Of a stretch of 64,000 nucleotides of DNA, positions 3,246-54,186 are shown in pieces (the stretch's first letter is position 1; each line of letters starts with the position of its first letter). The notes under the pieces were generated by a model. It searched no databases and was not told where the DNA came from. It saw nothing but the letters and a program-made list of their open reading frames with translations. Source of the DNA: an uncultured bacterium. GTDB lineage: Bacteria > Bacteroidota > Bacteroidia > Chitinophagales > CAIODY01. Location of the stretch: NCBI GenBank assembly GCA_903857255.1, contig CAIODY010000034.1, positions 8,127 through 72,126 of the forward strand, read 5' to 3'. Made by a program: the position numbers and the translations under genes.

Positions 3246-3986
3246 TTACATATCAATAGCTTCATCTACCAATATTCTGCCGCAATGTTCGCAAGCAGTA
3301 ATTTTGCGGTGTTGCTTAATTTCCATTTGTTTTTGAGGAGGAATACGGTTGAAACAGCCGCCACATGCCCCACGGCGAATAGGCACCACTGCCAAACCAT
3401 TTCTATAATTTTTACGAATCTTATCGTAGCTCATCAATAAGCGTTCTTCAATATTTTCGCGATGATGCGTTGATTGGCTTAATAAATCATTTTCTTCCGA
3501 TTCCGTTTCATCAATCAAATCAGTCAATTCAGTTTTCTTAGCTTTCAAAAACTTTTCTTTTTCCTTAATGTGCTTTTGAGCAGCTTCTAAATTGCTTTGT
3601 TTCAATCTTAATTCTTCCGCCGCATCTTTAGCCCGTTTTTCATTCAACTGTGCTTCCAGTTTTTGCATTTCAATCTCTTTGCTCAATGCATCAAACTCAC
3701 GATTGTTCTTCACATTATCTTGCTGCTTTTCATATTTTTTAGCAGCCGCTTCGGCATCTTTCTTAGCCGCTTTGTGGTTGTTAATTACATCTTCCGCTTT
3801 TGTAACTTCTTCTTCCAAATGCTGAATACGCACTTTCAAGCCTTCCAACTCATCTTCCATATCTCTCACTTCCATTGGCAATTCACCACGAAGTGTTTTG
3901 ATTTCAGTAATTTTTGAATCAATTTTTTGCAATTGATACAAATCTTTTAATTTCTGTTCAGTGCTTATTTCTTTTATTGCAGCCAT
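3246..3986 (-). CDS. C4 zinc-ribbon coiled-coil protein (COG1579 type), the usual partner of Nif3
   Basis: Long coiled-coil region, then C-terminal CGGC...CEHC. Lies immediately downstream of the Nif3 homolog, a known conserved pair. Confidence 0.8.
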   Translation of the reverse strand: MAAIKEISTEQKLKDLYQLQKIDSKITEIKTLRGELPMEVRDMEDELEGLKVRIQHLEEEVTKAEDVINNHKAAKKDAEAAAKKYEKQQDNVKNNREFDALSKEIEMQKLEAQLNEKRAKDAAEELRLKQSNLEAAQKHIKEKEKFLKAKKTELTDLIDETESEENDLLSQSTHHRENIEERLLMSYDKIRKNYRNGLAVVPIRRGACGGCFNRIPPQKQMEIKQHRKITACEHCGRILVDEAIDM

Positions 3987-13315: not shown

Positions 13316-14806
13316 TTATAGCACACTCCAACTCACCGAACCATCTTTTTCATCTTTTAATTGAATGCCTTTTTCTGCTAATTGATTTCTGATTAAATCG
13401 CTGGTGGCAAAATCTCTTTTTGCTTTTGCTTCTTTTCGCAAATTGATTAACACCTGCAAAGCTTCATCCAGCTTATTGTTGGCGGCAGTTGTATTTTCAT
13501 TTTTCAAACCAAAAATATCAAATAAATAGTCGTGTAAATTTTTTTTCAACGAATCAATCCCAGCCTGACTTATTTCTGATGACTTGATTTGTCCGCCTTT
13601 CAATGAATTTACAATCGAAGAAAGTTCAAACAAATTCGCAATCGTTTTTGCCGTATTGAAATCATCATCCATGAAGTCTTTACAACCAATTACTAAATTT
13701 TCAATCTTCAAATCCCAATCTGTTTTGTTTGAATTCCTAATTCCTAATTCATAATTCTTAATTTCTTCCTCCGCTTCCATCAAGTATTTCAAGCCCTTTT
13801 CAGCATCTTGCAATCCTTTTACATTAATGTCCAATTCAGAGGAATAATGCGATTGCAAAAATAAAAACTTCAACACACTCGGCGCATAACCTTTATCCAA
13901 CAATGGATGATTGCCTGTTACAAATTCCATTGGCAAAATAGAATTACCCAAACTCTTACTCATTTTTTGTCCGTTGAAATTGAGCATGTTGGTATGTAAC
14001 CAATACTTTGCTCCACCGTGATTGCAGCTACCTGTGTTTTGTGCAATCTCACATTCGTGATGCGGAAATTTCAAATCCATTCCACCACCATGAATGTCAA
14101 ATTGTTCGCCCAAATATTTTGTACTCATCGCCGAACATTCTAAATGCCAACCCGGAAAACCCTTTCCCCATGGGCTGTTCCACTGCATGATGTGTTCTGG
14201 TGATGCTTTTTTCCAAAGTGCAAAATCAATCGAATTTCTTTTTTCTTCTTGTCCGTCCAAATCGCGATAACCAGCCATCAACTCATCAATATTTCTTCCG
14301 GATAGAGTGCCATAGCCGTGTTCAGCGTTATATTTTTTTACATCAAAATAAATCGAACCATTCACTTCATAAGCAAAACCATTTTTCAAAAGCGTTTCAA
14401 TCATCTCAATTTGCTCAATGATATGACCTGTAGCGGTTGGTTCTATTGTTGGAGGAATCGTGTTGAAAGCATCCATGATGCGATGAAAACTCACTGTATA
14501 TTTCTGAACAATTTCCATTGGTTCCAAACTTTCTAACTTCGCTTGCGATTCCATTCTGTTCACCCCTTCGCCCCGTTCATTGGTCAAATGCCCAGCATCA
14601 GTGATGTTGCGGACATAACGCACTTTGTACCCCGAATAAGTGAGATAACGATAAATCATATCAAACGAACAAAATGTTCGCAAATTTCCAACATGCGGTT
14701 CGCTGTAAACAGTTGGTCCGCAAACATACATGCCCACGTGTGGCGGATGTAGCGGTTCAAATTTTTCTTTTATTCGGGTAAGTGTATTGTAAATATGGAG
14801 CGACAT
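13316..14806 (-). CDS. cysS: Cysteine--tRNA ligase
   Basis: HIGH-type motif (PHVGN), KMSKS motif and CGPTVY. Confidence 0.95.
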   Translation of the reverse strand: MSLHIYNTLTRIKEKFEPLHPPHVGMYVCGPTVYSEPHVGNLRTFCSFDMIYRYLTYSGYKVRYVRNITDAGHLTNERGEGVNRMESQAKLESLEPMEIVQKYTVSFHRIMDAFNTIPPTIEPTATGHIIEQIEMIETLLKNGFAYEVNGSIYFDVKKYNAEHGYGTLSGRNIDELMAGYRDLDGQEEKRNSIDFALWKKASPEHIMQWNSPWGKGFPGWHLECSAMSTKYLGEQFDIHGGGMDLKFPHHECEIAQNTGSCNHGGAKYWLHTNMLNFNGQKMSKSLGNSILPMEFVTGNHPLLDKGYAPSVLKFLFLQSHYSSELDINVKGLQDAEKGLKYLMEAEEEIKNYELGIRNSNKTDWDLKIENLVIGCKDFMDDDFNTAKTIANLFELSSIVNSLKGGQIKSSEISQAGIDSLKKNLHDYLFDIFGLKNENTTAANNKLDEALQVLINLRKEAKAKRDFATSDLIRNQLAEKGIQLKDEKDGSVSWSVL

Positions 14807-48288: not shown

Positions 48289-48992
48289 AAATCAAAAAAC
48301 TATTTGATGAATTAGAAGCGAAGTACAAAAAAGAAAATGGACAAAGCATTTTTGATGAATCGGGAATGATAATGATTAAAGAAAATCAAAAATTAAATTT
48401 TGGTTTTTTTCCAGCAGGTTCAGGAATATTTGTGCCGAATAAAAGTAAAATTCAAGAAGCAGAAATTGAAGAAGGTGGTGCCATGATTTTAGGAAATGAT
48501 TTTGGAACTCTAACTTATCTAGACAAAATTAACAATGGCGATAAAATTGAAGGAGGTAGTTCAACAATTAGAAATTTGAAAAAACTTGGGCTGGAGAATA
48601 AGTCTTTTCATACCAACTTTTATTTGGGAATTCGTGATGATAAAACTCATGAAGGAACAACAATGACTGACAGAATTGCGCCTCTGGAACAAAACTATAA
48701 GAGCTTTTGTTTCAGATTTTTCTTGAAACAATTAGAAATAATAAATCCTAAAGTGGTGGTTTGTTTGGGACATGATGTTAGGTTGGCACTTGCTGAAAAT
48801 GTACAACAGTTCGCTATTTGGAAATCAAAAAGTATTTCGTTTAAAAAACTTTATTCAACAGATAATTTTGTAATTAATGTTGATGATGAGTTAGGAAAAC
48901 GAAAATTCATTGTTATTCCTCACCCATGTTTCGCCAGCAATTTAAAGAAAAATTACGTTGATAAAATTCTAAAAGAATTGACTTTAAATTAA
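48285..48992 (+). CDS. Divergent uracil-DNA-glycosylase-superfamily-fold protein
   Basis: AMILGNDFGT resembles UNG motif A (ILGQDPY). PKVVVCLGHDVRLAL and VIPHPCFAS resemble the UDG-fold core strand and motif B (HPSP). This is pattern recognition only. Confidence 0.45.
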   Translation: MKIKKLFDELEAKYKKENGQSIFDESGMIMIKENQKLNFGFFPAGSGIFVPNKSKIQEAEIEEGGAMILGNDFGTLTYLDKINNGDKIEGGSSTIRNLKKLGLENKSFHTNFYLGIRDDKTHEGTTMTDRIAPLEQNYKSFCFRFFLKQLEIINPKVVVCLGHDVRLALAENVQQFAIWKSKSISFKKLYSTDNFVINVDDELGKRKFIVIPHPCFASNLKKNYVDKILKELTLN

Positions 48993-49048
48993 AGTTTGCA
49001 AATGAAAATCTAACTCAAAAAATACCTCAAAATATTATTTTCAAACTT

Positions 49049-49056
49049 GTACCTTT
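49049..49056 (+). promoter_or_regulatory. Bacteroidota -7 box (TAnnTTTG) upstream of korA
   Basis: tacctttg lies 66 nt upstream of the korA ATG. No clear -33 TTG. Confidence 0.3.
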
Positions 49057-49122
49057 GCGCCGCAAAAAGTCAAACGACTTTTGTGTTCAATCAACAATCA
49101 ATCAATCGTAAATCAAAAATAG

Positions 49123-50976
49123 ATGAGTGCTACAATCGAAAAATTAAGTGATGTTGTCATAAAATTCGCTGGCGATTCGGGCGATGGAATGCAATTAACA
49201 GGTGGTCAGTTTACCAATGCTGCTGCATTGTATGGCAACGACTTGGCTACTTTCCCCGATTTTCCTGCCGAAATTCGTGCGCCACAAGGCACTATTCCTG
49301 GTGTTTCGGGCTTTCAATTACATTTTAGTTCAAACGAAATTTTTACACCTGGCGATAATTGCGATGTATTAGTTGCCATGAATGCTGCGGCTGTAAAATC
49401 AAATTTATTCAACTTAAAAAAAGGTGGAATTATCATTGTAGATACCAATGGTTTTGATGCAAAAAATTTGCGCTTGGCAAATTATGCCGAAGGCGCAAAT
49501 CCTTTAGAGGATGGCACTTTGGATGGTTATAAACTCTACAAAATTGATGTTACGAAATTAACTCGTGAAGCATTAGCCGACATGGCTGGCTTGGGCATGA
49601 AAGAAAAAGACCGCTCGAAAAATATGTTTGTGTTGGGTTTTTTATATTGGATGTATAATCGCAACATGGATTTTACCATCAATTTCTTGACAGAAAAATT
49701 TGGTAAAAAACCAGAGATTTTAGAATCGAATATAAAAGTGTTGAAAGCTGGTTACAATTATGGCGACACCACTGAAACTTTCATGACACGATATGAAGTG
49801 CCAAAAGCAAAAGTTGAAGCTGGAACTTATCGCAGCATCATGGGTAATCAGGCTGTGGCCATGGGTTTTGTGGCTGCTTCACAAAAAAGTGGCTTACCAT
49901 TATTCTTAGCTTCTTACCCAATCACACCAGCATCAGATATTTTACACGACTTATCAAAATATAAAAACTTTGGCGTACGCACTATGCAATGCGAAGATGA
50001 AATTGCATCTATCTGTGCAGCCATAGGAGCAGCTTACGGCGGAAACTTAGCTATTACAACATCTTCAGGACCTGGCATTGCGTTAAAAGGTGAAGCGATT
50101 GGTTTGGCAGTGATGATGGAATTGCCATTAGTTGTTGTAAATATTCAACGTGGTGGACCTTCTACAGGTTTACCAACTAAAACTGAACAAGCAGATTTAT
50201 TACAAGCATTATATGGTAGAAATGGCGAATGCCCTATGGTAGTGATTTCTACGTCAACACCAAGTGATTGTTTTGAAGTTACAATTGAAGCATGTCGCAT
50301 CGCTTTGCAACACATGGTGCCTGTTATGTTATTGAGCGATGGTTATATTGCCAATGGTGCAGAGCCTTGGAAATTCCCTAAAGCCAGTGATATTGCGCCT
50401 ATCGAAGTAAAATTTAAAACAAAATTGGATGAAGGCGAAACAAAATTTTTGCCTTACAAACGCGATGAAAAATTAGGTCGTCCGTGGGTAACACCTGGAA
50501 CGCCAGAGTTGATGCACCGTTTGGGTGGTTTAGAAAAACAACATGAAACAGGTAATGTAAGCTACGACCCTGAAAATCATGAATTCATGATTAAAATGAG
50601 AGCTGCAAAAGTGGAGAAAGTAGCTGATTATATGCCTTTGCAAAAAATTGAAGTGGGTGCTGAAAAAGGAAAAATATTAGTGTTGGGTTGGGGTTCAACT
50701 TATGGTTCGATTAAATCAACAGTGTTAGATTTGATTGCCGAAGGTTATTCTATCAGCCATGCACACGTTCGCTACATGAATCCGTTGCCAAAAAATTTGG
50801 GTGATGTGTTGAAAAATTTCGAACACGTAATTATTCCTGAAATCAACAGCGGACAATTTATTAAAGTGGTTCGTGATAAATATTTGGTAGATGCAAAAGG
50901 TTATAACAAAACACAAGGAACACCAATTTCAAAAACAGAATTGAAGGAATTTATTAAGACCAATTATAGCAAATAA
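49123..50976 (+). CDS. korA: 2-oxoglutarate/2-oxoacid:ferredoxin oxidoreductase, alpha subunit
   Basis: N-terminus VIKFAGDSGDGMQLTG; 617 aa; followed by the beta subunit. Confidence 0.9.
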   Translation: MSATIEKLSDVVIKFAGDSGDGMQLTGGQFTNAAALYGNDLATFPDFPAEIRAPQGTIPGVSGFQLHFSSNEIFTPGDNCDVLVAMNAAAVKSNLFNLKKGGIIIVDTNGFDAKNLRLANYAEGANPLEDGTLDGYKLYKIDVTKLTREALADMAGLGMKEKDRSKNMFVLGFLYWMYNRNMDFTINFLTEKFGKKPEILESNIKVLKAGYNYGDTTETFMTRYEVPKAKVEAGTYRSIMGNQAVAMGFVAASQKSGLPLFLASYPITPASDILHDLSKYKNFGVRTMQCEDEIASICAAIGAAYGGNLAITTSSGPGIALKGEAIGLAVMMELPLVVVNIQRGGPSTGLPTKTEQADLLQALYGRNGECPMVVISTSTPSDCFEVTIEACRIALQHMVPVMLLSDGYIANGAEPWKFPKASDIAPIEVKFKTKLDEGETKFLPYKRDEKLGRPWVTPGTPELMHRLGGLEKQHETGNVSYDPENHEFMIKMRAAKVEKVADYMPLQKIEVGAEKGKILVLGWGSTYGSIKSTVLDLIAEGYSISHAHVRYMNPLPKNLGDVLKNFEHVIIPEINSGQFIKVVRDKYLVDAKGYNKTQGTPISKTELKEFIKTNYSK

Positions 50977-51022
50977 CAATGAACAAATATCAATTGAAAT
51001 ACAAAATTGCGCCTTAATTGTT

Positions 51023-51052
51023 AATTGATATTTGCTAATTGAAAATTGTAAA
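51023..51052 (+). repeat. Direct repeat, copy 1, flanking the four-helix-bundle insert
   Basis: aattgatatttgctaattgaaaattgtaaa. 29 of 30 bases are identical to 51436-51465, including a 23-bp perfect core. Confidence 0.8.
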
Positions 51053-51054
51053 AG

Positions 51055-51407
51055 ATGGCTAGTGGAAGTGAAAATATTATTTTGCAAAAAACATTTTCTT
51101 TTGCTGTCAGAATTGTAAAGTTGAATTGGTTTTTGATAGAGAAGAAAAAAAGTTTGTGCTTGCCAAACAAGTTTTAAGAAGCGGCACTTCGATTGGTGCT
51201 AATGCCGAAGAAGCCGTTGCAAGCCGCAGTAGAAAAGAGTTTATAGCTAAGTTTGGAATTGTTTATTCAGAAGCTAAAGAAACCAAATATTGGCTACGAC
51301 TTTTAAAAGAAACAGAATTGATTGATGAAAAAATGTTCTTATCACTGCTTGATGATTGCGAAGAAATAATAAAGATTGTTTTCAAAATCATTGAGTCATC
51401 AAAATAA
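51055..51407 (+). pseudogene. Four-helix-bundle protein (23S rRNA intervening-sequence protein family), frameshifted
   Basis: Frame 1 (51055-51177): MASGSENIILQKTFSFAVRIVKLNWFLIEKKK... Then the track ORF (51126-51407): ...EEKKFVLAKQVLRSGTSIGANAEEA...EAKETKYWLRLL. Together they reconstitute the family pattern. The frames switch at the A7 run 51145-51151. Confidence 0.7.
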
Positions 51408-51435
51408 TAAATTAATAACTGATTAGCGGTTTCCA

Positions 51436-51465
51436 AATTGATATTTGCTAATTGAAAAATGTAAA
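51436..51465 (+). repeat. Direct repeat, copy 2, immediately upstream of the korB start
   Basis: aattgatatttgctaattgaaaaatgtaaa. See copy 1. Confidence 0.8.
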
Positions 51466-51470
51466 TTAAC

Positions 51471-52496
51471 ATGAGTGAAGTAATTGAAAAAGCAGCATTA
51501 ACAAGTAAAGATTTTGCCAACGACCAAGATATTCGTTGGTGTCCAGGTTGCGGTGATTATAGTATTTTGAAACAAGTGCAAACCATTTTGCCGCAGGTTG
51601 GGGCATCGTTGGAAAACACCGTGTTTGTAAGCGGAATTGGCTGTAGTAGCCGTTTCCCGTATTACATGAACACCTATGGATTGCACACCATTCATGGTAG
51701 AGCAACTGCTATTGCAAGTGGCTTAAAAGCATCCCGACCTGATTTGGATGTGTGGATTATCAGCGGCGATGGCGATAGTATGAGCATTGGCGCAGGACAC
51801 ACCATTCATTTGTTGCGCAGAAATTTAAACGTGAATTTTTTGATTTTCAATAATCAAATTTATGGTTTAACAAAAGGGCAATATTCGCCAACATCCGAAG
51901 AAAATAAAATTACCAAATCTTCGCCGATGGGTTCTATCGACCATCCATTTAATCCTGCTGCATTGGCTCTGGGAGCCGATTCGAGTTTTGTGGCAAGAAG
52001 TGTGGATAGAGACCCAAAACATTTGCAAGAGATTTTAAAACGAGCACATGCACACAAAGGAACTTCGTTTGTAGAAATTTATCAAAACTGCAACATCTTT
52101 AATGACGGGGCTTTTGAGGTGTTTACCGAAAAAGGAACGAAAAAGATGCACACACTTTTAGTAGAAAATGGCAAGCCATTAATTTTTGGCGACAACAACG
52201 AATTGGGAATAAAATTAGATGGTTTTACACCTAAAATTGTAAACTTAAACGAAGGCAATTCTGCCAATGATTTATGGATACATGATGAATCGGAATTGAT
52301 GAAAGCATCGTTGTTGGTTCGCATGTTCGACGACCCAGCAAAAGAAGGTGCAATGCCTCGACCATTTGGTGTGTTTTATCAAAACGATAGATTGGTGTAT
52401 GAAGATGTAATGCATGCTCAAATTGCTACAGCCATGGCTAAACCTGGCGATTTGGATAAATTAATTGCTGGCAAAGAAACTTGGACAGTGAATTAA
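51471..52496 (+). CDS. korB: 2-oxoglutarate/2-oxoacid:ferredoxin oxidoreductase, beta subunit
   Basis: Motif CPGCGDY and TPP motif SGDGD. Confidence 0.9.
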   Translation: MSEVIEKAALTSKDFANDQDIRWCPGCGDYSILKQVQTILPQVGASLENTVFVSGIGCSSRFPYYMNTYGLHTIHGRATAIASGLKASRPDLDVWIISGDGDSMSIGAGHTIHLLRRNLNVNFLIFNNQIYGLTKGQYSPTSEENKITKSSPMGSIDHPFNPAALALGADSSFVARSVDRDPKHLQEILKRAHAHKGTSFVEIYQNCNIFNDGAFEVFTEKGTKKMHTLLVENGKPLIFGDNNELGIKLDGFTPKIVNLNEGNSANDLWIHDESELMKASLLVRMFDDPAKEGAMPRPFGVFYQNDRLVYEDVMHAQIATAMAKPGDLDKLIAGKETWTVN

Positions 52497-52522
52497 TTTT
52501 TGAAGAAATAATTTCATAAAAA

Positions 52523-52557
52523 ATGCCGAACAAAAAATTTTGTTCGGCATTTTTTTA
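52523..52557 (+). terminator. Rho-independent (bidirectional) terminator between korB and the SPFH gene
   Basis: atgccgaacaaaa (52523-52535) pairs with ttttgttcggcat (52538-52550). It has a T7 run downstream and an A-run upstream. Confidence 0.8.
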
Positions 52558-52572
52558 TTTAGATATACAAAA

Positions 52573-53502
52573 TTATTTCTGCGGCAAATTCACCTTATTC
52601 AATCCCATAATTTGGTTCATAGTTTTTTGCATTCCTTCGGCACTGCCATCTAAGAATATCACATTGCCTTTCCCTAATTCAGCAAAGTTCTTAATGGCTT
52701 CTGTCCACATGCTAAACATGATGACATTGGTATCTAAATTAGCTTGTTTCATTTCTTCGGCGGCTTGACTCATGCCTTTTGCCACCTCTTCACGAAACAA
52801 TGCAACGCCTTGCCCACGAAGTTGTGCAGCTACACGTTCGGCTTCAGCAGCAATTTTTATAGCATTTCCTTCAGCTTCGGCAGCCTTAGTTTTTGTGATT
52901 AATAAAGCTTGTCCTTCGTTTTCAGCAGCGGCTTTCAAATTGTTACTGGCAACCACTTTACTCATACTTGCCATGATGGCTTCATCAAAAGTGATATCAT
53001 TGATTTGTAAATCTTGCAAATGATAACCCCAAGTTTCTAATGTGGCATCAATTTGTTCTTTTACAAACTCAATAATTTCACGGCGTTGAACCAATATTTC
53101 TGCTTGTTTTTTTGTTGCAACAAATGAACGAATACTTCCTTCAACAGTCCTTACCAAAGCCTGCATCAAATCACGGTCGCTGATGAATTTGAAAGCCACA
53201 TTTTTAATGGTTTCTTCAGCAGTATTCAATACTGAATATAATAACATGGATTTGAAATAAACATTTGCTTGGTCAATCGTTACAGCCTGAAACTCCAATT
53301 CCACCGAGCGATTTTGAATACTCACTCGTTTGTAAACTTGTTCAACCAATGGCAGTTTGAAATTCAACCCTGGTGCTAATACTCGGCGAAATTTACCAAA
53401 CATGGTAACTACACCAATTGTACCTTGTTGAATGGAAACAAAACTTCCGAATAGTGCGATAACTATTAATGCTGGAAACCAAATAATTTGAATGAGTTGC
53501 AT
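52573..53502 (-). CDS. SPFH/band-7 (prohibitin-like) membrane protein
   Basis: N-terminal TM segment, SPFH core and an Ala/Glu-rich coiled-coil tail. Confidence 0.85.
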   Translation of the reverse strand: MQLIQIIWFPALIVIALFGSFVSIQQGTIGVVTMFGKFRRVLAPGLNFKLPLVEQVYKRVSIQNRSVELEFQAVTIDQANVYFKSMLLYSVLNTAEETIKNVAFKFISDRDLMQALVRTVEGSIRSFVATKKQAEILVQRREIIEFVKEQIDATLETWGYHLQDLQINDITFDEAIMASMSKVVASNNLKAAAENEGQALLITKTKAAEAEGNAIKIAAEAERVAAQLRGQGVALFREEVAKGMSQAAEEMKQANLDTNVIMFSMWTEAIKNFAELGKGNVIFLDGSAEGMQKTMNQIMGLNKVNLPQK

Positions 53503-53621: not shown

Positions 53622-54113
53622 TTACTTGCTATCAGGAGTGATATAAGATTTGTTACCGTTTTTGTTAATGTAATATTTTCCACCACGAGGACCAGTGTGA
53701 ACTGATTCACCATTTGGACCATGCAATTTAGGGTCAACTGCATCAGTTGTTTTTACAGCCGATTCAGCTTTATCTTTCTTTTCAGAAACTTCTTTTTTAG
53801 TTGTTGCGCCTTTTGCTTCAGCTTTTGCTTTGCCTTCTTTTTTCATCGAAGCCCCTGTTACTTCGGCTTTTTCTTTTTTCTCAGCAACTTCTTTTTTGGC
53901 TGTTGCACCTTTTGTTTCAGCCTTTGCTTTGCCTTCTTTTTTTATTGCTGTGCCTTTTGCTTCAGCTTTTTCTTTTTTCACTTTACCTTCTTTTTTTACC
54001 TCTTTTTTCGCTTCTGTTTTTGCTTTTGTATCAGCTTGAGCAGCAAATGATTGTTGACCGAAAAGTAATACCACAACTATTGCAGCACTTACCAAGAATT
54101 TTACTTGTTTCAT
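53622..54113 (-). CDS. Secreted Lys/Ala/Glu-rich tandem-repeat protein with a C-terminal GPRGG-YY motif
   Basis: Signal peptide MKQVKFLVSAAIVVVLLFGQQSFAAQA (start moved to ATG 54111-54113). Repeats KKEGKAKAE(T/A)KGAT(A/T)KKEV(A/S)EKK(E/D)KAE. Tail HTGPRGGKYYINKNGNKSYI. Confidence 0.6.
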   Translation of the reverse strand: MKQVKFLVSAAIVVVLLFGQQSFAAQADTKAKTEAKKEVKKEGKVKKEKAEAKGTAIKKEGKAKAETKGATAKKEVAEKKEKAEVTGASMKKEGKAKAEAKGATTKKEVSEKKDKAESAVKTTDAVDPKLHGPNGESVHTGPRGGKYYINKNGNKSYITPDSK

Positions 54114-54186
54114 TTTAATTTGTTTGTTTGTTTGGGTATGATTTAGCGAATATCGTGCCAATAATTTTATTAAAGAAGAAATAAAG

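Follow-up and report, generated by a model that had tools for sequence, protein, structure and literature searches.

We have analysed a 64,000-nt stretch of DNA from an uncultured Chitinophagales bacterium (contig CAIODY010000034.1, positions 8,127 to 72,126; hereafter the window), in which a four-helix-bundle (4HB) gene lies between korA and korB, the genes for the two subunits of a 2-oxoacid:acceptor oxidoreductase. Members of the 4HB family, also called '23S rRNA intervening sequence (IVS) proteins', are encoded in rRNA genes and in cas and housekeeping operons. The spacer from 50977 to about 51455 is probably an IVS-type 4HB cassette that brought its own arms of tandem 7-nt repeats (heptamers), has one of these arms, A', twice, and replaced the native spacer. 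The result of wider interest is a family-wide signature of heptamer arms; the 30-bp target duplication proposed for this site in a first-pass annotation is rejected. The features of the locus are, in order along the window:

49123-50976, + strand: korA, alpha subunit of 2-oxoacid:acceptor oxidoreductase (TIGR03710, E 3.3e-197)
50967-50995, + strand: arm A, '(-)' heptamer array AGCAAAT AACAATG AACAAAT ATCAATT (inverted repeats I1/I2/I7, 81-89% complementary)
50996-51013, + strand: loop of the predicted local hairpin between arm A and the proximal A' (RNA fold of 50955-51060)
51014-51052, + strand: proximal arm A', '(+)' heptamer array (TTAATTG x5) holding repeat copy 1 (Tandem Repeats Finder, TRF; direct repeat D2)
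51055-51407, + strand: 4HB gene (TIGR02436 / PF05635), frameshifted (profile matches, reading frames)
51408-51435, + strand: 28-nt stretch from the 4HB stop to the distal arm, without a clear array, conserved in the related locus L086
51436-51470, + strand: distal arm A', '(+)' heptamer array holding repeat copy 2 and reaching the korB ATG (direct repeat; similarity to Lacinutrix and L160)
51471-52496, + strand: korB, beta subunit (TIGR02177 / NF008820)
52518-52555, no strand assigned: perfect 18-bp palindrome after korB, likely a bidirectional operon terminator (inverted repeat I6)

The direct repeat consists of AATTGATATTTGCTAATTGAAAATTGTAAA at 51023-51052 and AATTGATATTTGCTAATTGAAAAATGTAAA at 51436-51465, two copies that are 413 nt apart and identical at 29 of 30 positions (97%). 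The first ends 2 nt before the ATG of the 4HB gene at 51055, and the second 5 nt before the ATG of korB at 51471. The first-pass annotation had described this repeat and its spacing from the start codons correctly, as it had the identities of korA and korB, which match the profiles listed above. The 23-mer core of the repeat has only two sites in 64 kb, even with three mismatches allowed, and none is expected from shuffled sequences. The annotation had considered that the repeat might be a common genomic motif, but only six short lag-7 arrays were present in the window, and neither a third copy of the repeat nor another 4HB gene was found in its 64 kb. Besides the arms, the region 49000-53500 contains only short two-copy repeats of 14-24 nt.

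The repeat is part of a tandem heptamer array of the form AATTGNN (TRF period 7, 5.1 copies, at 51014-51049). The proximal array is made up of the units AATTGTT AATTGAT ATTTGCT AATTGAA AATTGTA, and the distal array of AATTGAT ATTTGCT AATTGAA AAATGTA AATTAAC. An array of opposite polarity, arm A at 50967-50995, overlaps the 3' end of korA, so that the terminal codons AGC AAA TAA fall within it, and is complementary to both copies of the repeat (51023-51048 and 51436-51454). The order of units in the window is A, loop, A', open reading frame (ORF), A'. A leftward extension of the repeat was sought by eye between 50990-51022 and 51403-51435; the similarity was weak (about 11/17 in the 'loop') and was not relied on.

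Such arms accompany most of the 4HB genes that we surveyed. We fetched 80 metagenomic loci encoding 4HB relatives and counted the 61 with full flanks, which are the best tblastn matches to one 4HB sub-clade of a family with more than 7,800 proteins at E <= 1e-10 among the matches listed. Flanks of 76 korB genes and 173 random 360-nt intervals from the same loci served as controls, and arms were scored at a threshold of at least 14. A lag-7 tandem array was present in at least one flank of 87% of the 4HB genes, compared with 5% of the korB flanks and 7% of the random intervals. Inverted flanking arms were found at 82% of the 4HB genes and at none of the 76 or 173 controls. The period is specific: with lags of 5, 6, 8 and 9, no more than 2% of loci attain a score of 10. 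The median arm is 32 nt long. Upstream, the median distance from the end of the arm to the 4HB ATG is 13 nt; downstream, the arm usually starts at the stop codon, as in ...AATTCGTAA ttcgtaattcgtaatt. The heptamer unit varies from locus to locus (AATTACG, AATTAGG, AATTGAC, GAAAGTG and others), and the arms within one cassette match. Direct flanking repeats above the same threshold were observed at 6 of the 61 loci (10%) and at none of either set of controls, and the window belongs to this minority. On inspection the direct-repeat loci proved to be compound, having one arm more than the usual pair; the order was A, A', ORF, A' in most and A, ORF, A, A' in one. Locus L160 has both the A, A', ORF, A' layout and the AATTGTN units of the window.

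An array of the type that flanks 4HB genes elsewhere was also seen inside cysS of the window (ORF 13316-14806, minus strand), where AATTCCT x4.6 at 13732-13763 is read in frame and encodes ...EIKNYELGIRNS... This array aligns to a variable linker of the cysteinyl-tRNA synthetase CysRS 6UJD with no change of length.

Related cassettes were compared in different hosts. In Lacinutrix a 62%-identical 4HB gene lies in a thiC-thiE-4HB-thiD operon and carries both arm types of the window: its upstream arm CAAATAACAATTTGCA has CAAATAACAAT in common with arm A, and its downstream arm AATTGTTCATTGCCAATTGATAATTGTA is identical in register to the window repeat at 23 of 28 positions. The distal arm of the window is also similar to the downstream arm of L160. 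Where related cassettes occupy unrelated contexts, the homology comprises the arms and the ORF only, over 412-417 bp in L121/L132, 437-449 bp in L147/L159 and 457-464 bp in the Nostoc pair L182/L187. Across 63 cassettes, heptamer-unit similarity tracked 4HB protein identity in a Mantel test (r = -0.38 for identity against heptamer distance, with 0 of 2000 permutations as extreme). The heptamer-arm signature is also found on plasmids of other phyla. The cassette of Nostoc punctiforme pNPUN02 reads (CAATTCG)4.7, ORF, (TTGCGAA)4, inverted heptamer arms are present on plasmids of Euhalothece, Chlorohelix and Bernardetia, and a Treponema plasmid has the layout A, A', ORF, A'. Judged from these sequence comparisons, the arms are cassette-borne rather than host sequence.

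In the Lacinutrix locus (L174-L176:1485-1915) the called thiD gene begins 1 nt after the 4HB stop codon, with the downstream arm inside its 5' end, and the annotated N-terminus of ThiD is probably arm sequence. Further 4HB genes were observed between cas2 and cas1 of Anabaena cylindrica pANACY.01 (L179), between hsdS and hsdR of Monoglobus, where the gene is unannotated (L180), and between a helicase gene and an N-6 methylase gene of Chlorohelix (L183). Defence operons seem to be frequent hosts of 4HB genes.

Comparison of korA-korB junctions in relatives had been named in the first-pass annotation as a check on a target duplication, with a single copy of the repeat looked for at the empty site. 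Using KorB homologues, we located five insert-free junctions, in L167/L168, L169/L170, L171/L172 and L056. Their korA-korB spacers are 39-100 nt long and contain neither a 4HB gene nor an AATTG array. The closest, L167 and L168, encode KorB proteins 98% identical in amino acid sequence to that of the window and have korA genes 93% identical in nucleotide sequence. The 30-bp repeat is absent, even as a single copy, from the spacers of L167, L168, L169, L171 and L056, an outcome that the annotation had named as refuting its reading. Three of the insert-free spacers have a different conserved motif, TAATCAGTG..., in common. In a BLASTN alignment of the window with L167, homology ends at the korA stop codon (50976) and restarts at 51455, about 15 nt before korB. 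L056 is too diverged (78% nucleotide identity) for its spacer to be aligned as an empty site, and L167, L169 and L171 were used instead.

Among the window, L086, L167 and L169, korA identities are all much alike (90.5-93.2%). The cassette was gained in the lineage of the window and L086, as both outgroups, L171 and L056, are empty. The earlier view of the insert as a derived 4HB cassette of about 0.4 kb between korA and korB, bounded by a direct repeat, is thus upheld. L086 carries the same cassette and direct repeat; it is about 92% identical to the window in the korA and korB flanks and about 94-95% identical, gaps excluded, in the cassette, which was present before the two lineages split. 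Since the right copy of the repeat in L086 does not differ from the left copy of the window, the ancestral repeat was a perfect 30-mer.

Other differences were seen at these junctions. The penultimate codon of korA (window 50965-50976) is Ser AGC in the window and L086 and TCG or TCA in the insert-free relatives. The AGC version lengthens the complementarity of the korA end to the ATTTGCT arm unit, and suggests that the cassette event, or later selection, reached the last korA codons. The operon (window 48992-52523) is also mosaic: L169 is 92% identical to the window in korA and only 80% identical in korB, compared with 93% and 90% for L167, and a recombination breakpoint seems to lie at or near the korA-korB spacer. 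Large korA-korB gaps in other lineages (L058, L068 and L074-L076) were set aside, as they consist of tandem arrays or of Pro-rich N-terminal extensions of KorB and contain no 4HB genes. The L058 spacer (3507-3850) is a heptamer array of about 340 nt (CGAAATG / ACGGAAT / TAGGAAT), that of L068 (3664-3990) has other tandem repeats, and L075 and L076 have Pro-rich repetitive KorB N-terminal extensions. Most of the Chitinophagaceae loci retrieved with KorB (L001-L055) lack korA at the position upstream of korB, which in Chitinophaga niastensis is taken by a 114-aa ORF and a 740-aa gene in divergent orientation; the two subunit genes appear to be unlinked in this clade. In one locus with korA unlinked (L044:35-1066), korB is immediately preceded by a 4HB gene together with two small ORFs, and we would guess that the small ORFs are a candidate toxin-antitoxin pair.

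A filled and an unfilled site could be compared directly in Nostoc. In pNPUN02, 300 nt from the middle of a gene for a 138-aa protein have given way to the cassette (L182:535-991); the gene is intact in N. flagelliforme pNFSY05 (L186). Three more plasmids match with similar coverage and span, which suggests that the gene is intact there too; other plasmids are without it altogether. No duplication was found at the junctions of the filled/unfilled pair (L182 and L186). In the window the native korA-korB spacer was likewise replaced, not split. The 4HB gene is the sole ORF of the insert, and no recombinase was found in the cassette or among its neighbours (POR, TPP_enzyme_C, Band_7, MatE, Pro_dh and ALAD). 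The route by which the cassette entered is one that we infer: insertion looks like a patch or replacement, by gap or break repair or double crossover, and not like staggered-cut transposition. On N. flagelliforme pNFSY06 (L187:1-422) the cassette abuts an opposite-strand gene for an Rpn-family recombination-promoting nuclease/putative transposase, which may be a coincidence.

Cassettes are oriented with their surroundings. The upstream neighbour is co-directional at 56 of 60 loci, the downstream neighbour at 40 of 46, and both neighbours at 34 of 42. The gaps between the cassette ORF and its neighbours are about 42 and 49 nt and are mostly occupied by the arms. Because the arm pair is symmetric under reverse complementation, the orientation bias must come from the ORF. 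The bias suggests that the 4HB protein is expressed by read-through, now or at the time of insertion.

The 4HB gene of the window is not intact. The frame that opens at ATG 51055 stops at 51175, and the remainder is in the -1 frame (ORF 51126-51407), such that the first 31 codons of the N-terminus lie in frame 1 and the rest in the -1 frame. The lesion is a 1-nt deletion at the A7 run 51145-51151. Reconstruction across this run gives a 117-aa protein that matches TIGR02436 with E 4.5e-28 and 97.6 bits (cut-off 24) over profile positions 2-108 of 109, and only the reconstruction matches that profile end to end; it belongs to the family. The 93-aa ORF as found matches PF05635 with E 2e-21, at profile positions 25-104 only, and a profile built from 4HB relatives matches PDB 2RLD at 2e-47. 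An intact allele from another sample (P0001, 117 aa, 97% identical) has the same korA-4HB-korB context and reads ...EKKKEFV..., with GAG at the A7 position; the window has lost one G, which made the A7 run. Four independent metagenome assemblies, which match the window at 100% over 601 bp, have the same run, and the frameshift is therefore real and not a sequencing error. Programmed frameshifting was considered and rejected: relative to the upstream frame the A7 run is out of X XXY YYZ register, and comparison with P0001 reveals the simple loss of one G. Transcriptional slippage may rescue the gene at a low level, though nothing requires it. The L086 cassette, compared with the intact allele, lacks 21 nt in frame where the window has its lesion. 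The 4HB gene is decaying in this lineage, which fits a selfish passenger rather than a host function.

Folding of 50955-51060 predicts a local hairpin between arm A and the proximal A', with a 14-bp core stem and outer pairs (-17.7 kcal/mol, z -2.3). In the predicted fold of the whole unit (z -3.0) arm A is divided between the two copies: its 3' half is paired to the proximal one, and its 5' half, to which the korA codons AGCAAAUAA belong, is paired to the distal one, so that the ORF is enclosed. The ORF is thus bracketed by complementary arms able to form a predicted stem, as in an IVS. No Rfam family matched 50800-51600 or any of eight typical cassettes. The terminator scan found no terminator-like site between korA and korB, and korA, the 4HB gene and korB are probably on one transcript. 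A promoter scan, with a sigma-70 consensus that is not applicable to Bacteroidota, gave 16 sites where 12.9 were expected. No evidence was found for a promoter of the cassette's own. Because there is neither a terminator nor evidence for such a promoter, the cassette would be read in sense within the korA-korB transcript. Arm A could then pair with either A', to form a local hairpin just 5' of the 4HB start codon or, alternatively, a long-range stem with the ORF looped out, like that of rRNA IVSs, and might be cleaved by RNase III. The A-rich 3' end of the unpaired A' would provide a leader for the next ORF. Homology at a heptamer array most likely drove the event that gave rise to the extra A'; this could have been integration or gap repair where an A-loop-A' hairpin was already present, or else an arm was duplicated.

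Since both copies of the repeat end 2-5 nt before a start codon and the predicted fold divides arm A between them, we considered a duplicated leader acting as an RNA switch. The second A' would have been selected because arm A sequesters one copy at a time, which would toggle or balance translation of the 4HB gene and korB, or keep the A-rich leader of korB unstructured. The layout recurs in at least seven independent loci, including the spirochaete plasmid. The 4HB gene, however, has become a pseudogene in the window and has suffered a deletion in L086, and its regulation is therefore not under selection in this lineage; the repeat copies change at about the neutral rate (4 differences in 120 nt between the lineages), and most cassettes manage without a direct repeat. 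A switch is therefore an unlikely origin for the second arm.

About equally improbable is that two elements lie side by side, an earlier ORF-less hairpin (A-loop-A') or decayed cassette having been joined by the ORF and A' of a second. ORF-less heptamer hairpins do occur in operon spacers (L134, L122, L140 and L159), that of L134 in the fliQ-fliR spacer beside a 4HB cassette, and L137 has a full hairpin module on either side of its ORF. Against this, the 30/30 identity of the ancestral A' copies favours a single recent duplication, and no hairpin-only relative was found among the insert-free junctions. In L134 (1249-4075) the 4HB cassette is between fliP and fliQ, and the hairpin GAATTAGG... 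/ ...TTCGTAA xn fills the fliQ-fliR spacer.

A target-site duplication is less probable again, to the point of being very unlikely. A mobile 4HB gene would have entered staggered cuts 30 nt apart, and gap filling would have duplicated the korB leader. This would give a near-perfect direct repeat on both sides of a single-gene insert, and would agree with the perfect ancestral repeat and with the resemblance of the last ~12 nt of the right copy (GAAAAATGTAAA) to the A-rich native leaders of relatives. The first-pass annotation had accordingly taken the repeat for the native translation-initiation region of korB, but the repeat is in no insert-free relative, and three of these have a different conserved spacer. 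Arms like those of the window flank related 4HB genes in unrelated operons, arrays flank most family members, about 80% of which have inverted and not direct flanks, in the Nostoc pair 300 nt of target were lost by replacement and nothing was duplicated, and the cassette has no transposase. The annotation had also held the repeat to be a clue to how the 4HB family moves. A clue it remains, but for a different reason, as it is an arm that came with the cassette and not a duplicated piece of the host. Chance or low-complexity similarity in AT-rich intergenic DNA can safely be set aside, even with a window of 35% G+C and an AT-rich repeat, since shuffles expect no matches, direct flanking repeats were found in 0/173 and 0/76 controls, and the repeat is conserved in L086.

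Several observations weigh against reading the spacer as a cassette with arms of its own. The family survey drew on one sub-clade, with the other phyla represented by seven plasmid loci, and host phylogeny could be partly behind the Mantel signal. At about 7% korA divergence, the closest insert-free relatives leave room for an unsampled ancestor with a solitary array, and part of the repeat could be host-derived, given the A-rich leader resemblance of its right copy. The function of the arms as a stem-loop is proposed by analogy with rRNA IVSs. Among 56 arm pairs, G:U-type and A:C-type mismatches numbered 32 and 42, with no excess of G:U. Because this spectrum does not favour selection at the RNA level, a DNA-level origin of the arm symmetry is equally possible.

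A wider proposal can be made tentatively, and we hold it to be somewhat more doubtful than not. PF05635/TIGR02436 genes with paired heptanucleotide arms would form stem-loop cassettes of about 0.41-0.45 kb, spread across Bacteroidota, Cyanobacteriota, Spirochaetota and Chloroflexota and patched in sense orientation into transcribed DNA by replacement. Their insertion would be the work of array-guided break or gap repair, with neither transposase nor target duplication, and the 30-bp repeat of the window would be a scar of array-guided integration. Relatives or remnants of such cassettes would include ORF-less hairpins, the heptamer arrays known as STRR (short tandemly repeated repetitive) or TAACTGA sequences, and the classical rRNA IVSs; the 4HB protein might recognise its own heptamer arms.

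The 4HB family can thereby be recognised in DNA by a signature, two paired arms of about 32 nt, made of 7-nt repeats, which adjoin the start and the stop codon. A homology unit (arms plus ORF), a strong bias to sense orientation and one clean replacement insertion are gained with it. The signature lets cassettes be delimited automatically and filled and empty sites be paired, and makes the arms testable as RNase III substrates or as binding sites of the 4HB protein. Some intergenic heptamer arrays in cyanobacteria and Bacteroidota may find their explanation in it as well. In annotation work, 4HB genes within operons are to be regarded as passengers, and an arm can be miscalled as the N-terminus of the next gene, as in Lacinutrix thiD.

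Elsewhere in the window, downstream of the Band_7 gene, 53622-54161 (minus strand) encodes a 179-aa Lys/Ala/Glu-rich protein built of 45- and 99-nt tandem repeats at 53763-53979 (TRF scores 153 and 308).

The cassette was compared with known systems. Avd, the accessory protein of diversity-generating retroelements, belongs to the same Pfam family (PMC10053308) and thus to a homologous four-helix-bundle fold family. No reverse transcriptase domain was found among the genes within about 6 kb of the cassette and no template or variable repeat nearby, and a role as Avd in a retroelement does not apply here. Miniature inverted-repeat transposable elements (MITEs) and REPINs (hairpins of repetitive extragenic palindromic sequences) resemble the cassette in its size of about 0.4 kb, its inverted arms, its intergenic position and its ORF-less hairpin relatives. 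The cassette differs in having a conserved protein gene in fixed orientation and heptamer arms of variable copy number, and no transposase acting on it in trans was identified. Transposon target-site duplications and the repeat duplication made by Cas1-Cas2 also leave a direct repeat of about 30 nt on both sides of an inserted segment. Here, by contrast, the empty sites lack a single-copy target and the repeat is borne by the element, the cassette encodes neither transposase nor integrase, and the Nostoc pair shows loss of target.

Genes for 23S_rRNA_IVP are intercalated in cas operons, for example between cmr3 and cmr2, and a possible CRISPR function has been proposed for them (PMC3936711). 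The likeness lies in a lone 4HB gene wedged among co-directional operon genes. The same intercalation is nevertheless seen in kor, thi, fli and restriction-modification operons, which suggests that it is generic.

The STRR sequences of cyanobacteria are intergenic arrays of heptanucleotide repeats. TAACTGA repeats are found between genes in Beggiatoaceae, Cyanobacteria and Bacteroidetes (PMC4679880). Like the arms of the window, these arrays are tandem 7-nt intergenic units that often stand a few nucleotides before a start codon, and they are patchy in Cyanobacteria and Bacteroidota. They differ in having been described as direct repeats without cargo, and the literature searched, which comprised papers available without subscription, contained no link of heptamer arrays with either 4HB genes or paired inverted arms.

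PF05635 ORFs are also known from intervening sequences of 23S (and 16S) rRNA, as in Leptospira and Coxiella. Such intervening sequences have been described in candidate phyla radiation (CPR) bacteria as well (bioRxiv 10.1101/2024.02.27.582315). The cassette shares with them the protein family, an ORF between stem-forming arms, its place within a transcribed unit and a sporadic distribution among close relatives. It differs from them in its host, which is the spacer of an mRNA operon and not an rRNA helix, and in its arms, which are tandem heptamer arrays with one arm present twice.

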